A stretch of DNA of 11,307 nt from Candidatus Hodarchaeota archaeon. Its GTDB lineage: Archaea > Asgardarchaeota > Heimdallarchaeia > Hodarchaeales > Hodarchaeaceae. A program made the translations under genes and the position numbers. The stretch spans positions 1 through 11,307 of the forward strand of contig JAEOTM010000117.1 in NCBI GenBank assembly GCA_016839815.1, read 5' to 3'. Under the pieces are notes generated by a model that had not been told where the DNA came from, searched no databases, and saw nothing but the letters and a program-made list of their open reading frames with translations. Shown one piece after another: positions 1-11,111 of this stretch (the stretch's first letter is position 1; the number at the start of each line of letters is the position of its first letter).

Positions 1-537
1 AGGAAGTCCCCCAGCGAGTCCTCCAAAAATAATTGAGAACCTAGTTTTCCTTTTCAGCAAAAGAGAATAAATAATCACGTCAAAAAATGCACCAAGGAAG
101 ACAACAACAAACGTAACATAGTCTACGAAGATGGCAATGGCAATTAGGCCAGTAACTGTGAATATCAATCCATGACGTAGAACAGTACCCGGAGAGATCT
201 TTCCCATAGGTAGTGGTCGATCTCTGGTTCTGTCCATTAACGCATCAATATCTCTATCGATATACATATTCAGCAATGTGCTTCCTGAAATGGCAAAGAA
301 GATACCCACATTCAACCATAAGAATATGCTCAAATTGATACCAGTATGCCAAGCACTGATGAGATAAGCGAAAAATGTTGTATACGCTAGTAAAAACGTC
401 TGTTTGCTTTTAATCAACTCTCCGTAGAGAAAAAAGGGAGTTGATGTAGTAGTCGCTATTGTTGGATGCTCATATGCCTGTAATTGTTCGGGGGTATCTA
501 TATCTGGCATGTGTCTCTGTTTTCCTTGTTTTGGCAT
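1..537 (-). CDS. cyoE: Protoheme IX farnesyltransferase (heme O synthase, UbiA family), 3' end runs off the window
   Basis: Manual minus-strand translation from ATG 537 (alternative in-frame ATG 510) is open to base 1: MPKQGKQRHMPDIDTPEQ...ELIKSKQTFLL...GSTLLNMYIDRDIDALMDRTRDRPLPMGKI...IIYSLLLKRKTRFSIIFGGLAGGLP. It contains the CyoE/CtaB signature NxxxDRDIDxxMxRTxxRP and the Y..LKR.T...GG..G..P segment. Confidence 0.93.
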   Translation of the reverse strand, partial: MPKQGKQRHMPDIDTPEQLQAYEHPTIATTTSTPFFLYGELIKSKQTFLLAYTTFFAYLISAWHTGINLSIFLWLNVGIFFAISGSTLLNMYIDRDIDALMDRTRDRPLPMGKISPGTVLRHGLIFTVTGLIAIAIFVDYVTFVVVFLGAFFDVIIYSLLLKRKTRFSIIFGGLAGGLP

Positions 538-551
538 TTTTCTTTTGGTAT

Positions 552-2180
552 TTACTCAGGGAAATCTTTCACATCATGTCGACCCTTGATAATCTGAACC
601 AATTGATGGAAACAAAAGATGGCTAATGCAACCACAAAAAGCATAATGCCAAGATCCATGACAATCGGTAACCAATTCCCGAATCCTAATATCTCCTGAG
701 CCTTCCAGTATTCAGCCACATCCGCATACAAATTATGATCGACAGCCCAATTTGGGTTAAAGTGTGGATAATACAGATAGATAGCCCCAAGGCCAAACGC
801 TATAAGACTTCCAGCAAGGAATAACCAACCCATTGCATTTCTTATCGATCCTTTTATATCTAGGACATCAATTAGGAGTAACACTAGCATGACTGCTGAT
901 AGAGTAGCTAAAATATGCCAATGACCCCGAGCTACTGTTGTTTCAATTTCCAAAGGCCCTTCTCGAAATGCAATGATATCCAAAGCTTTTGTGAGAGGTG
1001 AAGGACCATGCTCTAGATCAGCTGGACCCCGAAGACTGAGAGCAAGGAATATACCACCAAATGTCATTACAAAGTTAACCCAGATGAAATGGAAGTAGAG
1101 GGAGAATTTCACAGGATCTCTGAATAGAACCTTTGTTCGTGTAAGCCACGAAGCAGACTCATACTCATCACCCAGAAACTCTTTACTCATTTTCTGCCAA
1201 CCTGTTAAAGCTAGTATGAGACCAACAGTAACCAGAATAGCAGAACCTGCATAGATCAAGTAATGCATATCAAAGGGCCAATCAAGAACCTCATTGAAAG
1301 TAACTGCCCAAGAGCCAATTGACATAATCAACATTCCTGGCATAGCAAGAGCCATTGAGATGGCATACCACTTTCCTTTTTGATCACGTGTGGTATATCT
1401 ATAGACAACGAGAAGGATTATGACATCGATTAGAGCTAGCATGATGTGTAGATGGGCTTTCACAGCATCCACTAAGACATGATTATATCCAGCAGGAAAT
1501 GGTTCTCGAAGGAAATATTCGGCTAATAATGGAAGCATACCATTTCCAAAGAATGATCCAATGATACCTCCAAGTATCACACTGACAAGAATACAAGCAG
1601 TGAGTAGAGTTAATGCATATTGACCAAGTAAAACATTCCTTCTATTCTCAGAATCTCGTTTCGGAAAAGTACCTGTTGGAAAAACACCCAAGAGTAACAT
1701 TATGCCTCCATAAAAGCATAATGATAGACCTACAAGATAAAGACCGTGCCATATCCATCTAAGATTAAGATCATGCCATAATCCCCCGTCCTGAAGAAAA
1801 ACATAGGTAAAAAGAATCCCGCTTGCAGAGGCTAAGATGCTTCCGATGAAGACAGGCCATTTTACCCTAGATTTGAACTTCTCTTTTACATCCATAAACA
1901 TAAGAACGAAATATGTGCAAACGGCTACCACTGGTACCGCTATACTGTGGTAGAGTATGATAATTCGTCCTGCTCTCTCTTCAAAACCGTCAGATAACTC
2001 AATTGGCAATAATGGCTGGCCAAAGATTAATTTTATCGGTTCGGAGAATGTAGAGAGAAATAGTACAATTACAAAAAGCCATACGAGGGTAAAAGTGATC
2101 ATTCCTTTGTAGGTAGCACCATAATTTATCTTTTTCTTTAACCAATCAACTTTTGAATTAGTAGTAGCTACTGTATCCAT
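552..2180 (-). CDS. 12-TM His-rich integral membrane protein, putative heme/metal-binding, heme-copper oxidase subunit I-like architecture (function unknown)
   Basis: 542 aa with about 12 hydrophobic segments. His motifs: LYH78S (TM2), WH145G (TM4), AH243LH245 (TM6), MH306Y (TM8), GH420WH422 (TM10). An SD-like AGGTGA overlaps the upstream stop codon, and the gap to cyoE is 14 nt. The CDS is well supported; the functional call is inference. Confidence 0.8.
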   Translation of the reverse strand: MDTVATTNSKVDWLKKKINYGATYKGMITFTLVWLFVIVLFLSTFSEPIKLIFGQPLLPIELSDGFEERAGRIIILYHSIAVPVVAVCTYFVLMFMDVKEKFKSRVKWPVFIGSILASASGILFTYVFLQDGGLWHDLNLRWIWHGLYLVGLSLCFYGGIMLLLGVFPTGTFPKRDSENRRNVLLGQYALTLLTACILVSVILGGIIGSFFGNGMLPLLAEYFLREPFPAGYNHVLVDAVKAHLHIMLALIDVIILLVVYRYTTRDQKGKWYAISMALAMPGMLIMSIGSWAVTFNEVLDWPFDMHYLIYAGSAILVTVGLILALTGWQKMSKEFLGDEYESASWLTRTKVLFRDPVKFSLYFHFIWVNFVMTFGGIFLALSLRGPADLEHGPSPLTKALDIIAFREGPLEIETTVARGHWHILATLSAVMLVLLLIDVLDIKGSIRNAMGWLFLAGSLIAFGLGAIYLYYPHFNPNWAVDHNLYADVAEYWKAQEILGFGNWLPIVMDLGIMLFVVALAIFCFHQLVQIIKGRHDVKDFPE

Positions 2181-2190
2181 TGATTCTCAC

Positions 2191-2871
2191 CTAAAATAAG
2201 CCACTGATAACAGGAATTTCGACTTTCCATTTCTTTGGAAGACCGATACCTAGGACAAATAAAACTCCTACGACTAAAAGGAGATAAGGAAGGACATCAA
2301 AGACCAAATCAAGTAAGTCCGTATTCCCATCTCCGACTGTAGCCATGGCTAATAAGACTCCACCAAAGGAAATCAGTAACCCACCTATTCCAAAGAAGGC
2401 GCTAGTCCACTCTGTTTCCTTTGTATATGCTGTGTATAATGGTACGAACGAAATAATTAAACCAGAAGGAATATGTACAGCCATAATTACCATAGAGGCA
2501 ATATTCAAATCTAATATGCCTGTTTTAATTAGCGTTATAAGAGCAATAACAACTAGCGAATATATTGCGTATACTAATCCATATTGTTTATCATCATATA
2601 CAGCATAGAGTAGTCCAACAGCAAGTCCTGCTGGAATTAATGCAGCTACAGGAGGAACTAGATCTTGATCTAATATTGCCTCTTCCCATCCGAGGAGAAT
2701 AATTATTACTCCCGAGATAAAAAGGACTAAGAAACTAATAGCCCAAGCCAAGTGATATGGTTTCTTTGATTCTAAATATTCCTTAATTAGGAGAAGGGCT
2801 AAGATAAGTGCCACAACACCTACTACTAGAAGCACAAGTGCTCCAATCATATTATCTTCAAGTAATGACAT
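2191..2871 (-). CDS. Hypothetical 7-TM membrane protein, first gene of the cyoE operon
   Basis: Seven hydrophobic segments with one intramembrane His (AVHIPSG) and a Gly-rich GIGGLLISFGG helix. The ORF-track start at 2901 is a TTG; the in-frame ATG at 2871 (MSLLEDN) is preferred. The gap to the next gene is 10 nt. Confidence 0.8.
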   Translation of the reverse strand: MSLLEDNMIGALVLLVVGVVALILALLLIKEYLESKKPYHLAWAISFLVLFISGVIIILLGWEEAILDQDLVPPVAALIPAGLAVGLLYAVYDDKQYGLVYAIYSLVVIALITLIKTGILDLNIASMVIMAVHIPSGLIISFVPLYTAYTKETEWTSAFFGIGGLLISFGGVLLAMATVGDGNTDLLDLVFDVLPYLLLVVGVLFVLGIGLPKKWKVEIPVISGLF

Positions 2872-2941
2872 AATTTTCAACTCAAATTCTGATATAGTCA
2901 ATATTTCTTTTCATAAATAGTGATTTTTTGTGATTTTACAG

Positions 2942-3222: not shown

Positions 3223-3660
3223 ATGAGTGAAGAACAACTCGAGGAATGTGCAGCAAGCCTTGCAATGCAGATTTTAGGCCGAAAGTGGACATTGTATATT
3301 ATTTGTGAATTATTAATGTGCCAAGAGCTCTATTTTAGCCAGCTTCAAGAGCAAATTCTTGGCCATTATCGTGAGAAGATCTCTGCAAGAGTCTTATCCG
3401 AAGCGTTAAGTCGGTTAGAGGAGAATGGAGTGGTTAATCGTACTGTACATAGTGAAAGTATGCCTATACGCGTCGGATATTCTTTAACAGACAAAGGTGA
3501 GGATTTTGCTGTTATTTTTAGTGCTTTGAAAGGGTGGGGAGTAAAATGGGGTGGTGTTACGATTAAGCGATGTAAATCATTTGCCTGTATTCATAATGCC
3601 GTCCCAATCATCGATATTGATGAGGCTAAATCCCTATTTCAAATTCAGGAATGTGATTAA
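3223..3660 (+). CDS. HxlR-family (MarR/DUF24) winged-helix transcriptional regulator
   Basis: Motifs C-x6-ILGRKWTLYII, FSQLQ, ISARVLSEALSRLEENGVVNR, PIRVGYSLTDKG and L..WG are typical of HxlR. It has an N-terminal Cys plus an extra C-terminal CKSFACIH. AAGGT lies upstream. Confidence 0.92.
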   Translation: MSEEQLEECAASLAMQILGRKWTLYIICELLMCQELYFSQLQEQILGHYREKISARVLSEALSRLEENGVVNRTVHSESMPIRVGYSLTDKGEDFAVIFSALKGWGVKWGGVTIKRCKSFACIHNAVPIIDIDEAKSLFQIQECD

Positions 3661-3720: not shown

Positions 3721-4533
3721 TTATGCTGGAGTTGGTTTGGGAGTGTGAATACTTTTAATAATTTGTCCTACAAATCGTAAGAATATTCCGACAACAATAG
3801 ATAAGAAACCAATAAAGTATTGGAATGCTTCTAACCAATTCCCTGTAAATGTATACACACTCGCATCTATTGGATGTGTTATTGGCATAATAATTGGTTG
3901 AATTATCAATAATACTCCAAAACTTAGGGCTACAGTTGAAAAGTACGCAACCTGAGAACCAATACTTCCCCCACCGGTACCCGTTTCTTCCGCCATATGG
4001 GCTTCAAGATTTCGTCTTGTTCCAGATAGTAGCAAAACAATTAGAAGGAACAGATTTCCTATCACTCGAGCCCAAGAAGGTGTGAAAGGCATTCCATTAA
4101 CTCCGTAGGTGGCCCACCATTCATAAAAGAGAATCCAAACTGGAATAATTCCACTAATAATTCCTGCCACACTGTTAATGATAGCTACATTATAAAACCA
4201 GGATTTCTTTTCTCTAAGAGCCCAATATAAGGCCACCCATACAATAGCTACGAGCCAAGTTACAATGTAACTTGCAATAAAAGCTGGCTGATTGGTACCA
4301 ATAATCGCAAATGTATAACCACCTTTATCATTTGGCATTTTCCACCAATTACCTAGTAGGTTAAAAGTTGTACAAGAACTTCCAATTCCAGAGATAACTC
4401 CAATCGCAGCGGCCAAAGCCATCAGGATAAACAGACTTTTCATTGTCTGTATTCCTACATAAAATCTTCGTATTAATGATTTAATCTTATCTAGTATACT
4501 CAAATTTCTCACAAACCATTTTCTAGTTTTCAT
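3721..4533 (-). CDS. Hypothetical multi-pass membrane protein (about 6 TM)
   Basis: 270-aa ORF with a basic N-terminus and about six hydrophobic segments. No family motif recognised. An alternative start lies at MKSLF (ATG 4443). Confidence 0.75.
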   Translation of the reverse strand: MKTRKWFVRNLSILDKIKSLIRRFYVGIQTMKSLFILMALAAAIGVISGIGSSCTTFNLLGNWWKMPNDKGGYTFAIIGTNQPAFIASYIVTWLVAIVWVALYWALREKKSWFYNVAIINSVAGIISGIIPVWILFYEWWATYGVNGMPFTPSWARVIGNLFLLIVLLLSGTRRNLEAHMAEETGTGGGSIGSQVAYFSTVALSFGVLLIIQPIIMPITHPIDASVYTFTGNWLEAFQYFIGFLSIVVGIFLRFVGQIIKSIHTPKPTPA

Positions 4534-4704: not shown

Positions 4705-5097
4705 ATGACAAAGAATTTTCCTTTTAAAACAGAATATCTGTATTTTCAGTATCACGTTCTTGATATTGAAAGAGCTAAAGATTTTTATGTGAATACTTTT
4801 GATTTTAAAGTGGCTTATGATGGAGGCACGGATATTGGTTGGTGTGAACTTGATCTTCCAGTAAAAGGAACCAGATTAGGATTAAATCTTCTTCCTGAAG
4901 GATCTAAATTAGTATCAGGTTCAGGAGTTTTATCATTTGAAGTTACTGACTTAGAAAAAGCAAAAAGTGTCTTGGAAAATAAAGGAGTTCCTTCTGATGA
5001 AATTATTGACATACCAGAATTAGTATCGTACTTCAACGCTGTTGATTCAGAAGGGAATAAAATCCAATTTGTGGAAGAACCAAGGATTAAGGACTAA
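4705..5097 (+). CDS. VOC family (glyoxalase/bleomycin resistance-like) protein
   Basis: V.DIERAKDFY...F.F, LSFEVTDLE and F..VDSEGNKIQF motifs match the paired beta-alpha-beta-beta-beta VOC fold. AAGGT lies upstream. Confidence 0.9.
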   Translation: MTKNFPFKTEYLYFQYHVLDIERAKDFYVNTFDFKVAYDGGTDIGWCELDLPVKGTRLGLNLLPEGSKLVSGSGVLSFEVTDLEKAKSVLENKGVPSDEIIDIPELVSYFNAVDSEGNKIQFVEEPRIKD

Positions 5098-5567
5098 TCT
5101 CTATTTAACTTGATCTTCTCTTGAGCGAGTAGTGCTGCATCTACGATTGGTTGATATCCCGTACATCGACATAAGTGTGGTTCGAGTGCTTCAAAAATCT
5201 GGTCTTTATTTGCATTGGAATTAGAGGTAAACAGCGCATATAATTCCATAACGTATCCAGGGGTACAAAATCCACACTGAATACCACTAGCCTCAACAAA
5301 CGCCTTTTGAATTGAGTGAAGCTGAAAATTATCTGATATTCCCTCAATTGTGATAACTTCCACGTTTTCCAATTTTCTAGCTTTAGTGATACAGCTTTTT
5401 ACAGCTTTTCCATTGACAACAACTGTACACGCTCCACAATGTCCTTGTTTACAGCCATTCTTAGTACCGGTCAGAGCTAGATTTTCTCGTAGAATATCAA
5501 GTAGGGAATCAGAAGGATCCACGATTAGCATGTAATCTTTCTTATTCACTCTTATTTTCAGTTCCAT
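5094..5567 (-). CDS. Xanthine dehydrogenase-family small subunit, 2x[2Fe-2S] (CoxS/CutS-like)
   Basis: GTKNGCKQGHCGACTV...SC, IQCGFCTPG and HLCRCTGY supply all eight Cys ligands. It has a strong SD (AAGGAGG) and starts 1 nt after the large-subunit stop. Confidence 0.95.
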   Translation of the reverse strand: MELKIRVNKKDYMLIVDPSDSLLDILRENLALTGTKNGCKQGHCGACTVVVNGKAVKSCITKARKLENVEVITIEGISDNFQLHSIQKAFVEASGIQCGFCTPGYVMELYALFTSNSNANKDQIFEALEPHLCRCTGYQPIVDAALLAQEKIKLNRD

Positions 5568-5568
5568 T

Positions 5569-7902
5569 TCAGATTCCTCCTTCTTTGAGGGCTTGTAACA
5601 TCCACTCCTGAGTTACTGGAATACTTCTAAATGAAACACCGGTTGCTCTCTGAATTGCATTTAAAATTGCTGATGGTGGTCCTAATGCAGGATGTTCAGC
5701 GATAGGACGAGCTCCATAAGGCCCATCTGGTTGGGGAGTTTCCACGAAGATACAACTATATTTTCTTGGCATATCTGATAATCTCGGTATAGCATATCTT
5801 CGTAAATTGGTAGTTGTCATAATTCCAGATTCATCGTAGATAATTTTTTCTTTTAATGCCTGACCAATTCCCTGCATCACTCCACCAGTGACTTGACCTT
5901 CTGCTAATCTTGGATTGATTATTTTTCCAGCATCAAGAGCTGTTACAAAATGGAGAACAGTGATTTTTCCAGTATTCTTGTTGACCTTCAGATCAACACC
6001 TTGACTACCATAAGTCCACTCATAAGGTTGATATTGGCCTGTCTCAAGATCTGGAAATGTGACATTACGAACAACGGATGATCCTGTGCTTAGTATAGGA
6101 TTCCCTACGGTATGGCCATCTGGATATTGATATCCTAATACTAAGTCTTTGAGATCAATGGTTTTATCTTGATAACTTACTTTAGTACCATCATAGACAA
6201 TATCAGTTAAAGAACAATTCCATACTTCGGCCGCATTCTTCTTAAATTTCATTATTGCTCGATCACATGCTGCAATAATCGCATTACCAACGCGCATAGT
6301 TGTCATACTAGCAACTGTCTGCCATTCATATGGGGTTAACTGTGTATTGATCTCATAATTAATTCTAATATCATCTACAGACTTTTGTAGTTTATCAGCG
6401 GCTATCTGTGCTAAAACGGTTAAACATCCCTGACCCAATTCGACTCCTCCGATAGAGATGTTAATGGTTAAATCTTCATTAAATTTTAAAAATACGTTGG
6501 AGGAGGCATTGGCAGTTTGAACAGGTGATTTAATTAGCCCTACTACCGCCCGACCGTAGTAATACTTCTCATCTTCAGGAGGAAGGGAGATTTCATCAAG
6601 TTTTGCTACTGTTTGAGTAAAACATTTTCTAATATCACCATTATGATCGGTAATTGCTTGTCCAAGCGAATTCGTATCTCCTGGTTTCAAAAAATTCTTC
6701 ATTCTTAGATCATTGGGATCTATATTCAATTCTAAAGCTAATTTGTTCAATAATCGCTCAATCATAAATTGTCCTTCGGGATGACCGTAACCACGAAAAG
6801 CACCAACAGGTGTAGAATTGGTATATACACCAAACGATTTAAGATCACAATTAGGAAAAAAGTAGGGGCCTACACAATTATGCCCTGCTGCTAATACTAC
6901 ATTACAACCTGTATCGCCATATGCACCATCTGAGAAGTATTGAGTTGCTTTTATCCCCGTGAGTGTTCCATCAGCTTTAGCACCTATTTTCATACGCCCC
7001 TTCATACCACGTCCTAACACTGATCCAATAAAAACTTCTTTTCGAGTCAGTACAAATTTGACATGATATCCTGGTACCTGTCGCGCAGCTAGAACTACAA
7101 GGGGTTCGATTGTATAATCACTTTTTCCTCCAAATCCCCCACCAAGATAAGGAATATGAATGTGAATTTTTGTCATCTGTTTAATCTTGAAATAATCTGC
7201 AAGTACTTCTCGTAAGACGAAAGGCGCTTGAGAGCTACTCCAAAGATGGAGTTCACCAGTATGATCCCAACGGGCAATCGCACCGTGAGGTTCAATTGCA
7301 GCATGATTCATTAAAGGATATTCGAATTTATCCTCAACTGTAACCTCGGCATCTTTGAAAACATTCTCATACTCCCCTTTTTTGAGTTGATACTTATAGA
7401 ATATGTTTGTTTCAGGAATTGGGACAAATGTAGGAACATGACGATAATGACCATTTTTCTCATGAATTAGTGGGGATTCTTTCCTCGCAGCAATAATTGG
7501 ATCCAGCACAAAGGGTAATTCCTCTAGGTCCACCTCTATTTTTTTGATTGCTGCTAGTGCTTGCTTCTCTGTCTCTGCAATAACAACTGCTATGACCTCT
7601 CCCGCATGTCTTACTTTATCTATAGCTAGTGGTGGTTGATCAAAAATACAAGTTCCAAATAAATGATTTTTATCTAGATTGAGGGACTTTCCTGTAAACA
7701 CTTTATGTATTCCTGGCATGGATTGTGCTTTACTGATGCTAAGTGATTTAATGTTGGCAGCTGGAACACCAGCTCTCATAACCTTCATTATTAATGTTCT
7801 AGGAAAGCGTAAATCATCAATGAATAATGCAGAACCTGTTACTTTTTCTAAAGCGTCTGCTCGTGGAACGCTAGTTCCTACTACTTTACTGAACAACTTC
7901 AT
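5569..7902 (-). CDS. Xanthine dehydrogenase-family molybdopterin-binding large subunit (CoxL/CutL-like aldehyde/N-heterocycle oxidoreductase)
   Basis: Motifs: EKVTG, HAAIEPH, SSSQAP, LGGGFGGK, GAFRGYG, ELGQG..T...QIAA, DAGKIINP...GQ..GG..QGIG and GPYGARPIAE (catalytic Glu present). Confidence 0.95.
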   Translation of the reverse strand: MKLFSKVVGTSVPRADALEKVTGSALFIDDLRFPRTLIMKVMRAGVPAANIKSLSISKAQSMPGIHKVFTGKSLNLDKNHLFGTCIFDQPPLAIDKVRHAGEVIAVVIAETEKQALAAIKKIEVDLEELPFVLDPIIAARKESPLIHEKNGHYRHVPTFVPIPETNIFYKYQLKKGEYENVFKDAEVTVEDKFEYPLMNHAAIEPHGAIARWDHTGELHLWSSSQAPFVLREVLADYFKIKQMTKIHIHIPYLGGGFGGKSDYTIEPLVVLAARQVPGYHVKFVLTRKEVFIGSVLGRGMKGRMKIGAKADGTLTGIKATQYFSDGAYGDTGCNVVLAAGHNCVGPYFFPNCDLKSFGVYTNSTPVGAFRGYGHPEGQFMIERLLNKLALELNIDPNDLRMKNFLKPGDTNSLGQAITDHNGDIRKCFTQTVAKLDEISLPPEDEKYYYGRAVVGLIKSPVQTANASSNVFLKFNEDLTINISIGGVELGQGCLTVLAQIAADKLQKSVDDIRINYEINTQLTPYEWQTVASMTTMRVGNAIIAACDRAIMKFKKNAAEVWNCSLTDIVYDGTKVSYQDKTIDLKDLVLGYQYPDGHTVGNPILSTGSSVVRNVTFPDLETGQYQPYEWTYGSQGVDLKVNKNTGKITVLHFVTALDAGKIINPRLAEGQVTGGVMQGIGQALKEKIIYDESGIMTTTNLRRYAIPRLSDMPRKYSCIFVETPQPDGPYGARPIAEHPALGPPSAILNAIQRATGVSFRSIPVTQEWMLQALKEGGI

Positions 7903-8065: not shown

Positions 8066-9988
8066 ATGGCTGACATTAATCACATAAAAATAGGAATACT
8101 TGATTTAACGTCAGGTGAAATCAATTCTGAAGATTATTCCTTCGATAGTGGAGAATTTAAAAGATATCTGGGAACTGAAGGTCTTGTTGTTTACTATCTG
8201 TTGAAGAATATGCCAGTTAATTGTCATCCCTTATCTGCGGATAACCATTTATGTTTTATTACTGGTATATTGAGTGCTACTAAAGTTCCATTCTCTGGTC
8301 GATTTACTGTAGTCTGTAAATCTCCTCTTACAGGTGGATGGGGTGAAGCCAACGCAGGGGGCCGTTTTGGACCTGAATTACGAAAGACAGGCTTTGATGC
8401 TCTTATCATCAAGGGAAAAGCCAAGGAATTATCAACTATTGTTGTAACAGATGATTCTATTGCAATCAGAAAAGCTGATAAGCTTAAAGGTTTGGATTGT
8501 ATCCAAACAGAAAACATTCTGAAGGAAGAATTTGGTAAAAAAGCTCAAATCGCAAGTATTGGATTAGCAGGGGAAAATTTAGTATTAATTTCTGGTATTG
8601 TCACTGATAAGGGGAGAATTGCTGCTCGAAGTGGCGTAGGAGCAGTTATGGGCTCAAAAAATCTTAAAGCAGTAGTAGTTAGAGGTACTAAATCTATGAA
8701 AGTAGCTGATCCAGCGGGCCTGAATGAACTACGGAAATTAGTAAATAAACGTATAACTAAGGGAATTAGTCCTCTAATGAAACCAGGATTAAAGGCTTCA
8801 ACAACATTTGCACCGTGGATTCGGAGATTCCGTATAAAGAACTATGGCTCGATGAGTCCAAGCAATATGATCATTGAAACTTATCGTCGATGGGGAACAT
8901 GTGCTGGAAGCGCTATTTGCATTGAAACTGGTGATGCGCCTGTTAAGAACTGGAAAGGATCATATCTTGATTTTCCTCTCAAAAAAAGTTCTAAAATCAC
9001 TGGAGATAATGTAACAAAGTTTCAAATTAGAAACTATGGCTGTCATAGTTGTCCTATGGCCTGTGGGGGAATAATGAGGTATACAGATGAGAATTTCACT
9101 CTCGAGGAAACACACAAACCTGAATATGAGACATTAATCATGCTTGGTGCCAATTTGTTAAATGATGATCTTGGTGCGATCTATCAATTAAATAATTATT
9201 GCAATCGTCAAGGTTTGGATACCATTGCAGCTGGAGCTCTCTTAGCATTTATTATTGAAATATTAGAAACAGGAAATATTACACAAGAGCATTTGAATGG
9301 ATTGAATCCAACGTGGGGTGATCCTACAGATTATCTTGCAGTACTAAAGTTGATAACGGAGAGAAAAGCGGGAGGAGATATATTTGCAGATGGTTTTATA
9401 CGAGCTTCGGAACAATACAAGACTTCTAGCGGGATTCATATTCAAAATCAAGCCTTACCTGCTCATGATCCACGATTTTCTAATAGTATTTTACTCTCTT
9501 ATCGATTAGATCCTGCACCAGGAAGACATACTCCATTCATAGAACTAATGCTTGATCTGGCGAAATTTAGTCAAATGTTTCCTCACCTCCCTAAAACCGA
9601 CCGTCTACCAAATTTTTATTGTTATCATAAGACGGTATCTGCATTAGGTCTGTGTCAATTTAGTTTATTAACAGGTAATTTTCCTGTGGTGGAATTTGTA
9701 AATCTAGTAACTGGATTTAATTTTTCAATTGAGGACATCGTAATTATCGGTGAGCGAATTTTAACTTTGAAGCATATATTCAATTTGAGGGAGGGAAAAA
9801 ACCCTCTTGATTATCATCTGCCCGCTAGAGCCATGGAGAATGCCGATCGTGGACCTAATAAAGCAATTTCAGATATAACGGAACAAAAATTAATTACTGA
9901 ATTTCTAGAATCGTTACATTGGGACACTTCAACAACTATTCCGAAAAAAGAGCGATTGGAGGAACTAGGATTAGATGGACTTATCTAA
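8066..9988 (+). CDS. aor: Aldehyde:ferredoxin oxidoreductase family protein (tungstopterin, 4Fe-4S)
   Basis: Motifs: KSPLTGGWGEANAGG, GFDALIIKGKA, ARSGVGAVMGSKNLKA, CHSCPMAC (three 4Fe-4S ligands), PEYET, GLDTI, HDPR and LGLCQF (fourth Cys). Confidence 0.94.
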   Translation: MADINHIKIGILDLTSGEINSEDYSFDSGEFKRYLGTEGLVVYYLLKNMPVNCHPLSADNHLCFITGILSATKVPFSGRFTVVCKSPLTGGWGEANAGGRFGPELRKTGFDALIIKGKAKELSTIVVTDDSIAIRKADKLKGLDCIQTENILKEEFGKKAQIASIGLAGENLVLISGIVTDKGRIAARSGVGAVMGSKNLKAVVVRGTKSMKVADPAGLNELRKLVNKRITKGISPLMKPGLKASTTFAPWIRRFRIKNYGSMSPSNMIIETYRRWGTCAGSAICIETGDAPVKNWKGSYLDFPLKKSSKITGDNVTKFQIRNYGCHSCPMACGGIMRYTDENFTLEETHKPEYETLIMLGANLLNDDLGAIYQLNNYCNRQGLDTIAAGALLAFIIEILETGNITQEHLNGLNPTWGDPTDYLAVLKLITERKAGGDIFADGFIRASEQYKTSSGIHIQNQALPAHDPRFSNSILLSYRLDPAPGRHTPFIELMLDLAKFSQMFPHLPKTDRLPNFYCYHKTVSALGLCQFSLLTGNFPVVEFVNLVTGFNFSIEDIVIIGERILTLKHIFNLREGKNPLDYHLPARAMENADRGPNKAISDITEQKLITEFLESLHWDTSTTIPKKERLEELGLDGLI

Positions 9989-10487: not shown

Positions 10488-11111
10488 GTGTCAGATCACG
10501 AAAGAAAAGTCGCTTTATGTAATACAATGAAAGAACTATACAAAGAAAAAATTCTCACTGATATAGGAGGTAATCTAAGTTTTCGCTCAAATGAAGAGTC
10601 GGAAAAATATTTTTGGATCACTCCCTCGGGGATGAAGAAAGACATTGTCGAACCAGAGCATCTAATCAAAATGACTATGGATGGTGAAGAAGTAGATAAT
10701 GATGGTGATCTTTCCCCAAGTGTAGAATGGCCGATTCATCTTCGGATATATCAGGAAGATGAGGATTTTCAATTTGTTATTCACTCACATGCTCCCCTTG
10801 CCACAGCCTACTCTATCTTGGCAAAACCTCCAGAAATTCCTCCACTAACAGCTGAATTAGGATTTTTAGTTCCTGAAATAATTATTGTGCCTTATCAACA
10901 AAGTGGATCAAAGGAATTAGGAGAAGCTGTAGCTGAATTACTATGGGACAGTCAAACCCTTGTCTTGGAGAACCATGGGGTTGTAGCAGTTAGTGAAGAA
11001 TCTTTTGAAAATGCAGCAATAAAAACACGTGCTTTAGAAGAATATCTTCAACTTTATCTCACTATTAAGAAATTTGGCGGAGATATCCGTCCTTTTCCAG
11101 GTTTTGAATAA
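10488..11111 (+). CDS. Class II aldolase/adducin family protein (FucA/RhaD/MtnB-like)
   Basis: GGNLS, ITPSG, PSVEWPIH, HSH and LENHG retain the catalytic Glu and three Zn-binding His. GTG start with GGTGA upstream. Confidence 0.93.
   Translation: MSDHERKVALCNTMKELYKEKILTDIGGNLSFRSNEESEKYFWITPSGMKKDIVEPEHLIKMTMDGEEVDNDGDLSPSVEWPIHLRIYQEDEDFQFVIHSHAPLATAYSILAKPPEIPPLTAELGFLVPEIIIVPYQQSGSKELGEAVAELLWDSQTLVLENHGVVAVSEESFENAAIKTRALEEYLQLYLTIKKFGGDIRPFPGFE

Follow-up and report, generated by a model that had tools for sequence, protein, structure and literature searches.

The locus considered here raises the question of what an archaeal membrane protein might do that is predicted to share the fold of the haem-copper oxidases (HCOs), with histidines at the positions of their haem ligands, and that lacks the histidine pair of their copper site. 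The stretch of DNA that was analysed (the window, 11,307 nucleotides) corresponds to positions 1 to 11,307 of contig JAEOTM010000117.1 from a Candidatus Hodarchaeota archaeon (assembly GCA_016839815.1). The protein is encoded by the open reading frame (ORF) at positions 552-2180 of the minus strand, labelled T in what follows, which begins with ATG and gives a stop-free translation of 542 codons (542 aa). Our analysis favours, with a probability of roughly 0.55, the reading of T as a haem-O-dependent redox enzyme of the oxidase fold that would operate without CuB; a particular substrate is proposed with much less confidence than this general reading. The HCO superfamily is among the best-charted enzyme families in bioenergetics, and a widespread family of the same fold, with haem ligands, neither CuB nor FeB, and a haem O synthase of its own, would represent a new type of membrane haem enzyme. 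The features of T on which the argument depends are the following.

552..2180, minus strand: T, predicted 12-transmembrane (TM) protein with the fold of HCO subunit I, seven conserved histidines and no CuB HH pair (model, alignment and repeats)
1947..1949, minus strand: codon of H78, in TM2; presumed axial ligand of a low-spin haem and counterpart of H74 in the COX1 of the same genome (conserved in 203 of 203 homologues)
1746..1748, minus strand: codon of H145, where TM4 begins on the outer side; the repeat alignment pairs it with H306 (200 of 203)
1446..1454, minus strand: H243-L-H245, in TM6, followed by M247; at the place of the single CuB histidine of HCO TM6 (conservation, spacing and repeat)
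1263..1265, minus strand: codon of H306, at the outer start of TM8, beside the outer end of TM7 where the CuB HH would sit (202 of 203)
915..923, minus strand: H420-W-H422, in TM10; counterpart of the HCO HxH motif (201 of 203 for each histidine)

A widespread family with seven conserved histidines

Profile searches of T gave no match in Pfam or NCBIfam, and no paper describing the family turned up in literature searches. A word-indexed search retrieved 394 homologues, all of them labelled 'hypothetical' and none with a Pfam domain. About 50 close homologues belong to Asgard archaea (Hodarchaeales, Heimdall-, Hermod-, Odin- and Thorarchaeota), and many of about 30% identity to Chloroflexi/Anaerolineae. 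An exhaustive phmmer search of 1.84 billion cluster representatives with T returned 112 clusters only, and a scan of one genome per GTDB species found a T relative in at least 593 genomes, mostly of Asgard archaea and Anaerolineae; among the matches listed, the other hosts are further Chloroflexota, Symbiobacteriaceae, Spirochaetota, Aminicenantes and Thermodesulfobacteriota. In addition, natural fusions occur, in which T is joined to a C-terminal FGE-sulfatase domain (P0133, 785 aa) or to a PD40 beta-propeller (P0230, 777 aa).

A preliminary description of this DNA, made by a model from the letters and the ORF list, had singled out the same seven histidines, with codon positions for H78, H243/H245 and H420/H422 that coincide with those listed above, and had proposed their invariance in homologues as a check. 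All seven are invariant in an alignment of 36 sequences and 98.5-100% conserved across 203 distinct homologues with identities down to about 30%, a level far above what chance would give. Specifically, H78 and H243 are present in all 203 sequences and H245 in 202; the two sequences without H420/H422 are truncated, and the three members that diverge most have lost H145. No further family-conserved histidine appears in the 203-sequence alignment. Near-invariant as well are R72, Y77, E221, M247, W291, R406, E413, W421, R447 and W452, the methionine (95%) being specific to TM6, and many conserved glycines lie in TM3-TM5, TM7 and TM9. The intramembrane D252, also put forward in the preliminary description, turned out not to be a family-wide feature, since this residue is Asp in only 78 of the 203 homologues and Ala or Gly in most bacterial members.

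T is predicted to adopt the fold of oxidase subunit I

An AlphaFold2 (AF2) model of T built on the family alignment (mean pLDDT 87.9, pTM 0.89) shows 12 long helices, in agreement with the number first proposed, which fall into three four-helix units: TM1 24-45, TM2 66-95, TM3 100-127 and TM4 140-166 in unit 1; TM5 180-210, TM6 234-263, TM7 270-293 and TM8 306-340 in unit 2; TM9 356-381, TM10 410-439, TM11 445-474 and TM12 503-532 in unit 3. As had been suggested from the sequence, the model places histidines in the second helix of each unit and at the starts of TM4 and TM8.

When the model was compared with the PDB by Foldseek, the whole top 50 consisted of subunit I of HCOs or nitric oxide reductases (NORs), with E values from 4e-3 and TM-scores of about 0.5. 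A wide structure search with VIA, run over 48,161 representative chains and independent of Foldseek, placed ten HCO/NOR families in its first ten positions (Z 13.9-18.7, 396-433 residues, root mean square deviation 4.0-5.2 Å), in an order led by cbb3 (3mk7_A, Z 18.7) and cNOR (4xyd_A, 18.4), followed by bo3, aa3, caa3 and ba3, down to qNOR (13.9). Below these ten families the VIA list contains partial matches only, with Z of 11 or lower. The structural check proposed at the outset thus yields full-length matches to HCO/NOR subunit I alone. In the ESM Atlas, a cluster of NnrS proteins (TM-scores 0.54/0.63) lies as near to T as the COX1 cluster (0.52/0.63). A search of PDB sequences with T and with the family profile found no oxidase; its sole match, MrpB (E 0.031), was judged spurious.

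The assignment of T to the HCO fold is therefore a structural prediction, given that no significant sequence relation to HCOs was found. What makes the prediction strong is that the match covers the whole chain and that a single superfamily tops both structure searches.

The putative ligand set keeps the haem positions and lacks the CuB pair

The loop charges of T obey the positive-inside rule, with cytoplasmic N- and C-termini, and in this orientation H78, H243/H245 and H420/H422 all come to lie at one depth, each 9-12 residues in from the outer end of its helix (TM2, TM6 or TM10). Oxidases have their haem irons at this depth; there the HxH motif of TM10 ligates both haems and the TM2 histidine together with a TM10 histidine holds the low-spin bis-His haem.

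The genome of the window also encodes a canonical A-type COX1 on another contig (locus L003, contig C96), with the same number of helices, which allowed a direct comparison. In this COX1 the ligands are H74 in TM2, H246 within HPAVY in TM6, W293-G-H295-H296 in TM7 and H384-F-H386 in TM10; the equivalent positions of T are H78, H243-L-H245-I-M247, W291-A-V-T and H420-W-H422. The linear spacing (78/243-245/291-293/420-422 in T versus 74/246/295-296/384-386 in COX1) agrees within about 5 residues up to TM7. By position, the TM2 and TM10 haem ligands and the TM6 histidine of HCOs all have counterparts in T, including the pair formed by the TM2 histidine and the second histidine of the TM10 HxH, which would serve as low-spin haem ligands. 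On the other hand, HLHIM stands in T for HPAVY and WAVT for WGHH, so that the TM7 pair is replaced by Val/Thr. TM7 of T contains no histidine, no HH dipeptide occurs anywhere in the protein, and no conserved Tyr or Glu is found in TM6 or TM7 of the 203 homologues that could stand for the cross-linked Tyr or the FeB Glu. T adds to the HCO set a second histidine in TM6, a Met four residues after H243, and histidines at the outer starts of TM4 and TM8.

The same picture emerges from the comparison with cbb3 CcoN and cNOR NorB, the minimal 12-TM catalytic subunits of the HCO superfamily. T resembles them in the 12-TM fold (matched over about 400 residues), in a TM2 histidine and a TM10 HxH at the same depth, and in a TM6 histidine at the CuB/FeB position. 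It differs from them in having no TM7 HH, cross-link Tyr, FeB Glu motif, PF00115 match or partner-subunit gene, and in carrying the second HxH in TM6, the two extra histidines and a triplication that is detectable in the sequence.

These comparisons agree with the preliminary description, according to which the TM2 and TM10 ligands match those of HCOs and the TM7 HH and the cross-link Tyr are missing. Its view of T as a deeply divergent protein of the HCO fold is borne out by the structure searches and by these absences, while the bound haem and the rebuilt active site that it proposed stay at the level of prediction. The new HCO families described so far keep the active-site histidine set, and only gNOR alters one of these residues, from His to Asp (PMC11214002). 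Because the published families keep this set, T is outside described HCO diversity.

An internal triplication of a four-helix unit

The resemblance between TM6 and TM10 that had been noticed at first reading reflects a true internal repeat. When the 203-sequence alignment was cut into the three four-helix units and these were compared by hhalign, units 2 and 3 matched with a probability of 95.9% (E 5.9e-9), in an alignment that pairs H243 with H420, H245 with H422, the KG loop of one unit with that of the other, and H306 with D509. Units 1 and 3 matched with a probability of 91.5% (E 8.5e-7), Y77-H78 being paired with W421-H422; the match between units 1 and 2 was weak (23%). The threefold symmetry of canonical oxidases is, to our knowledge, visible only in their structures, and a triplication that can be detected in the sequence, as in T, is on this account unusual.

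A complete subunit of styrene oxide isomerase (SOI; 8pnu) can be superposed on unit 1 of T (residues 20-169; VIA Z 9.0, 141 of 155 residues). In SOI, three 4-TM subunits form a trimer, and each of the three haems b at the interfaces is held by one histidine (PMC11374702). T would correspond to such an assembly in a single chain of three four-helix units, each with a histidine in its second helix. The likeness has its limits, since SOI works with haem b as a Lewis-acid isomerase and is not connected with haem O, and the structural match is middling. On the basis of the SOI overlay and the glycine-rich TM3-TM5, a third haem in the glycine-rich TM3-TM6 pocket of T is possible; in canonical oxidases side chains fill this pocket.

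T is linked to a probable haem O synthase of its own lineage

T is a member of a tight same-strand array, c3 – T – CtaB-like gene, in which 10 nt separate the end of c3 from the start of T and 14 nt the stop of T from the start of the third gene, which is the following.

1..537, minus strand: CtaB/CyoE-like haem O synthase, N-terminal 179 aa, running off the window (TIGR01473, E 4.5e-40)

We clustered the ORFs of 80 T loci and counted linkages over 78 of them. A CtaB-like ORF is present in the fetched flank of T at 61 of the 78 loci, at 57 of them within 2.5 kb, and most loci without such an ORF end at a contig edge. Five T-linked synthases checked against NCBIfam scored 206-214 bits on TIGR01473, far above other UbiA models; full-length copies score 204-223 bits, around the equivalog cut-off of 210.3, with the next UbiA model at 70 bits or less, and the partial copy of the window reaches 138 bits over half of the model. 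The product of the T-linked synthase is presumably haem O.

A PF00115 protein above the cut-off is absent from 15 of 40 sampled T genomes. These include the single chromosomes CP070760 and CP070695, the complete genome of Ca. Heimdallarchaeum aukensis and the Anaerolineaceae chromosome CP070708. In four oxidase-less genomes (two single chromosomes, one complete genome and one assembly with a 3.7-Mb contig), the sole CtaB-like gene lies within about 1.1 kb of T. Conversely, in bacteria that possess both T and an A-type oxidase, a synthase of 313-347 bits stands beside the oxidase and another one, of about 205-215 bits, beside T. The genome of the window contains, besides its one canonical COX1 (450 bits on PF00115, where T has no match), only the T-linked synthase.

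In a quick maximum-likelihood tree, a branch with SH-aLRT support of 100 separates the 57 T-linked synthases, which come from both domains, from 14 other synthases of the same genomes; archaeal and bacterial T-linked synthases form separate subclades. The tree is unrooted, with a small outgroup in which some branches are long. Chromosome CP070695 carries three CtaB-like genes within 25 kb (1572142-1597093), one of them beside T, and locus L012 (9646-11696) shows a tandem CtaB-like pair directly after T, which suggests that the T-linked synthase was recently duplicated in some Asgard genomes.

A canonical CtaA accompanies T in 12 of the 40 genomes. The genome of the window gave no PF02628 (CtaA) match, which is weak evidence because this genome is 89.5% complete. 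The simplest reading of these data is that a dedicated haem O synthase serves T itself, or the module to which T belongs, and T does not give the impression of standing in for CtaA.

Haem O synthase (COX10) has been used as an aerobic marker in the debate on oxygen use by Asgard archaea, the nearest relatives of eukaryotes among the archaea (10.1101/2025.02.26.640444; 10.1101/2024.07.04.601786). Our data bear on that debate, as in T genomes a COX10-type gene is linked to T and is present even where any oxidase is missing.

A conserved gene module around T

The other genes of the window that belong to the conserved neighbourhood of T are given below.

2191..2901, minus strand: c3, 236-aa 7-TM protein with one invariant mid-membrane histidine (H143), kept in archaeal and bacterial modules
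3223..3660, plus strand: regulator of the HxlR family, divergent from the operon; its best NCBIfam match in profile search is the redox regulator RrpB
3721..4533, minus strand: c4, 270-aa polytopic membrane protein with invariant C54 and H220, kept in archaeal and bacterial modules

In Asgard archaea the gene order is c4, HxlR (on the opposite strand), c3, T and CtaB, and other Asgard loci have the HxlR/RrpB-like regulator in the same place. In bacteria a Crp/Fnr-type regulator comes first, in some cases with multihaem cytochromes c behind it, and the order continues with c3, T, a lipoprotein with an FGE-sulfatase domain, CtaB, a second c3 and c4. The FGE-like lipoprotein gene follows T in most bacterial modules and matches the FGE domain of the P0133 fusion; no such gene was found in the Asgard modules. 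Genes for multihaem c-type cytochromes lie near T in subsets of both bacterial and Asgard loci, a minority overall. Neither a NorC nor a CcoO/P gene was found in the module.

For the model of c3 (pLDDT 91), the structure search returned nothing but generic 7-TM bundles, GPCR-like folds among them (Z 12-14), and did not single out oxidase subunit III. A complex prediction of T with c3 gave a score of 0.00, which speaks neither for nor against binding.

Proposed function and alternative explanations

On the reading that we favour, T would be the core subunit of an undescribed branch of the HCO fold without CuB or FeB, whose mechanism can be sketched from the residue positions. A low-spin bis-His haem of the kind common to all HCOs would be bound by H78 of TM2 and H422 of TM10, and H420 would hold a second haem, most likely haem O from the synthase that the adjacent gene encodes. 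Distal to this second haem, where Val/Thr replace the TM7 HH, H243-x-H245(-x-M247), perhaps with H306, would provide a sixth haem ligand or a new metal site, and a third haem could occupy the glycine-rich TM3-TM6 pocket. Judging by its Crp/Fnr- and RrpB-like regulators, by the multihaem cytochromes and by hosts that are mostly anaerobic, T most likely serves anaerobic or microaerophilic organisms as a reductase of O2, NO or a related oxidant. Two of the options raised in the preliminary description, an extra haem in place of CuB and a new chemistry of O2 or NO, stay as candidates.

The conservation of the histidines, the predicted fold, and the linkage to the synthase with its lineage structure are established here; several points nevertheless weigh against the function built on them. 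The kinship of T with HCOs rests on predicted structure, and no sequence-level homology is demonstrable: T has no PF00115 match at E <= 0.1, and an hhalign comparison of the family with an alignment of 13 diverse HCO/NOR proteins gave a probability of 0.7%. This non-significant alignment pairs the GHWH of T with the TM10 HxH (H384/H386) and W291 with the Trp that precedes HH, which we take as a lead only. The number of haems proposed for T, the pockets that would hold them and the His-His distances are likewise conjectural. Furthermore, no gene for a subunit II (cupredoxin or cytochrome c) recurs beside T at the 78 loci, eight of these loci have a divergent T without a nearby CtaB, and the substrate is guessed only from the regulators and the lifestyle of the hosts.

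Among the alternatives, T could be a non-catalytic electron-transfer protein in which all haems are six-coordinate and bis-His, passing electrons between periplasmic multihaem cytochromes c and either quinol or small partners in the membrane. Five conserved histidines at one depth would suffice for two such haems, with H245 as the sixth ligand of the second; T has no ligand set for CuB or FeB, and multihaem cytochrome c genes recur near it in both domains. However, with all histidines at the same depth the haems cannot span the membrane, a dedicated farnesylated haem is known from catalytic high-spin sites, and the cytochrome c genes occur at a minority of the loci only, so that we consider this role unlikely. 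It is quite unlikely, in our judgement, that T acts on haem O as a haem-modifying enzyme, one that would oxidise the substrate haem by means of its own His-bound haem(s) and yield haem A, as an alternative synthase, or some other haem O derivative. This idea, the third and least supported option of the preliminary description, is in keeping with the tight linkage of T to haem O synthase, with a window genome that has a canonical COX1 and no PF02628 CtaA, and with the fact that CtaA, too, is a His-rich haem-binding helical bundle; its gene (CtaA/COX15) is, moreover, often found beside ctaB. Yet the 15 oxidase-less genomes, among them two single-chromosome and one complete genome of Heimdallarchaeia and an Anaerolineaceae chromosome, have no canonical HCO to use a modified haem, the 12 genomes with a canonical CtaA already possess the known enzyme, and the missing CtaA in the window's incomplete genome counts for little. 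Each full-length structural match is an oxidase or NOR subunit I, and CtaA is an 8-TM protein of two bundles without an HMM match to the 12-TM T.

NnrS (PF05940), a 12-TM protein with haem and copper, takes part in the NO response, and T might be a similar stress or maturation protein that binds haem and possibly copper, serving NO protection or metal/haem handling rather than respiration. The two share a predicted overall shape, as seen from the ESM Atlas clusters, an orphan His-rich 12-TM character and a link to regulators of the oxidant or NO type; we know of no solved NnrS structure with which to compare the model. The TM6 H-x-H-x-M motif with its helix-specific Met, and the FGE-sulfatase-domain lipoprotein adjacent or fused to T in bacteria, FGE being a copper enzyme, would fit such a role. 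We hold it to be very unlikely, because T has no PF05940 match and none was found at the T locus in 18 genomes, the Asgard modules lack an FGE-like gene, and NnrS is not known to need haem O, nor is a linkage to the synthase known for it. The search with the PF05940 profile gave no true matches. Finally, helical membrane folds can converge and the sequence link between T and HCOs is not significant, so that T could in principle be a cofactor-free transporter or channel that shares only the 12-helix arrangement with oxidases. Seven invariant intramembrane histidines at haem-ligand depth and with HCO-like spacing, a Z score of 18.7 over about 400 residues with the top ten matches all from one superfamily, and the co-inheritance of T with a haem O synthase lineage make this extremely improbable.

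To return to the haem-O-dependent redox enzyme that we prefer, its evolutionary form can be suggested in tentative terms. T may be a near-symmetric, copper-free relative of the ancestor of the oxidases, in which three haem-binding units like those of the SOI trimer became fused, with as many as three haems, of which haem O would be one or more, and with reduction of an oxidant at a haem-only or new His/Met site; we regard this fuller proposal as possible but doubtful. T is in this sense a candidate window on the origin of the oxidase fold from a triplicated four-helix haem unit. Should T indeed be a copper-free relative of the oxidases, haem O synthase in Heimdallarchaeia and in many strict anaerobes would report the presence of T and not aerobic respiration.

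Other observations

Two further proteins were met in the searches. A 489-aa ORF of a Symbiobacteriaceae genome (L104:1049-2518; genome G027, contig C1) scores 30 bits on PF00115, just below the cut-off, with a match that spans nearly the whole model, and represents a second, different kind of highly divergent oxidase-like protein; considered as a bridge between T and HCOs, it was found by hhalign to be unrelated to T. In the genome of the window, a 474-aa ORF (contig C33:17209-17439, L113) has a sub-threshold match to the NnrS profile (19 bits, E 1.4e-3) and may be another orphan polytopic histidine protein.

As regards the surroundings of the module, a CcmF-like haem-handling protein and multihaem cytochromes c are encoded nearby in some Asgard loci. 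Specifically, a block a few kb upstream of the T module (L016, L017, L020, L023 and L024) comprises a multihaem cytochrome c, a GH76/GlcNAc-epimerase-like protein of about 740 aa and a CcmF-like protein of about 740 aa. The modules of L062 (labelled Methanosarcinales) and L073 (Bacteroidales) are near-identical to those of Anaerolineales, with branch lengths of 0.02-0.03 for the L062 CtaB, and this looks more like a binning error than gene transfer.

The rest of the window (5094-7902, minus strand; 8066-9988, plus strand; 10488-11111, plus strand; 4705-5097, plus strand) encodes four enzymes. One is a molybdenum hydroxylase of two subunits, the small one of the 2Fe-2S type and the large one XdhA-like; the others are a tungsten/molybdenum aldehyde:ferredoxin oxidoreductase, a class II aldolase and a protein of the glyoxalase fold. 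For Hodarchaeales, Xdh figures in published discussion as an aerotolerance trait (10.1101/2025.02.26.640444).

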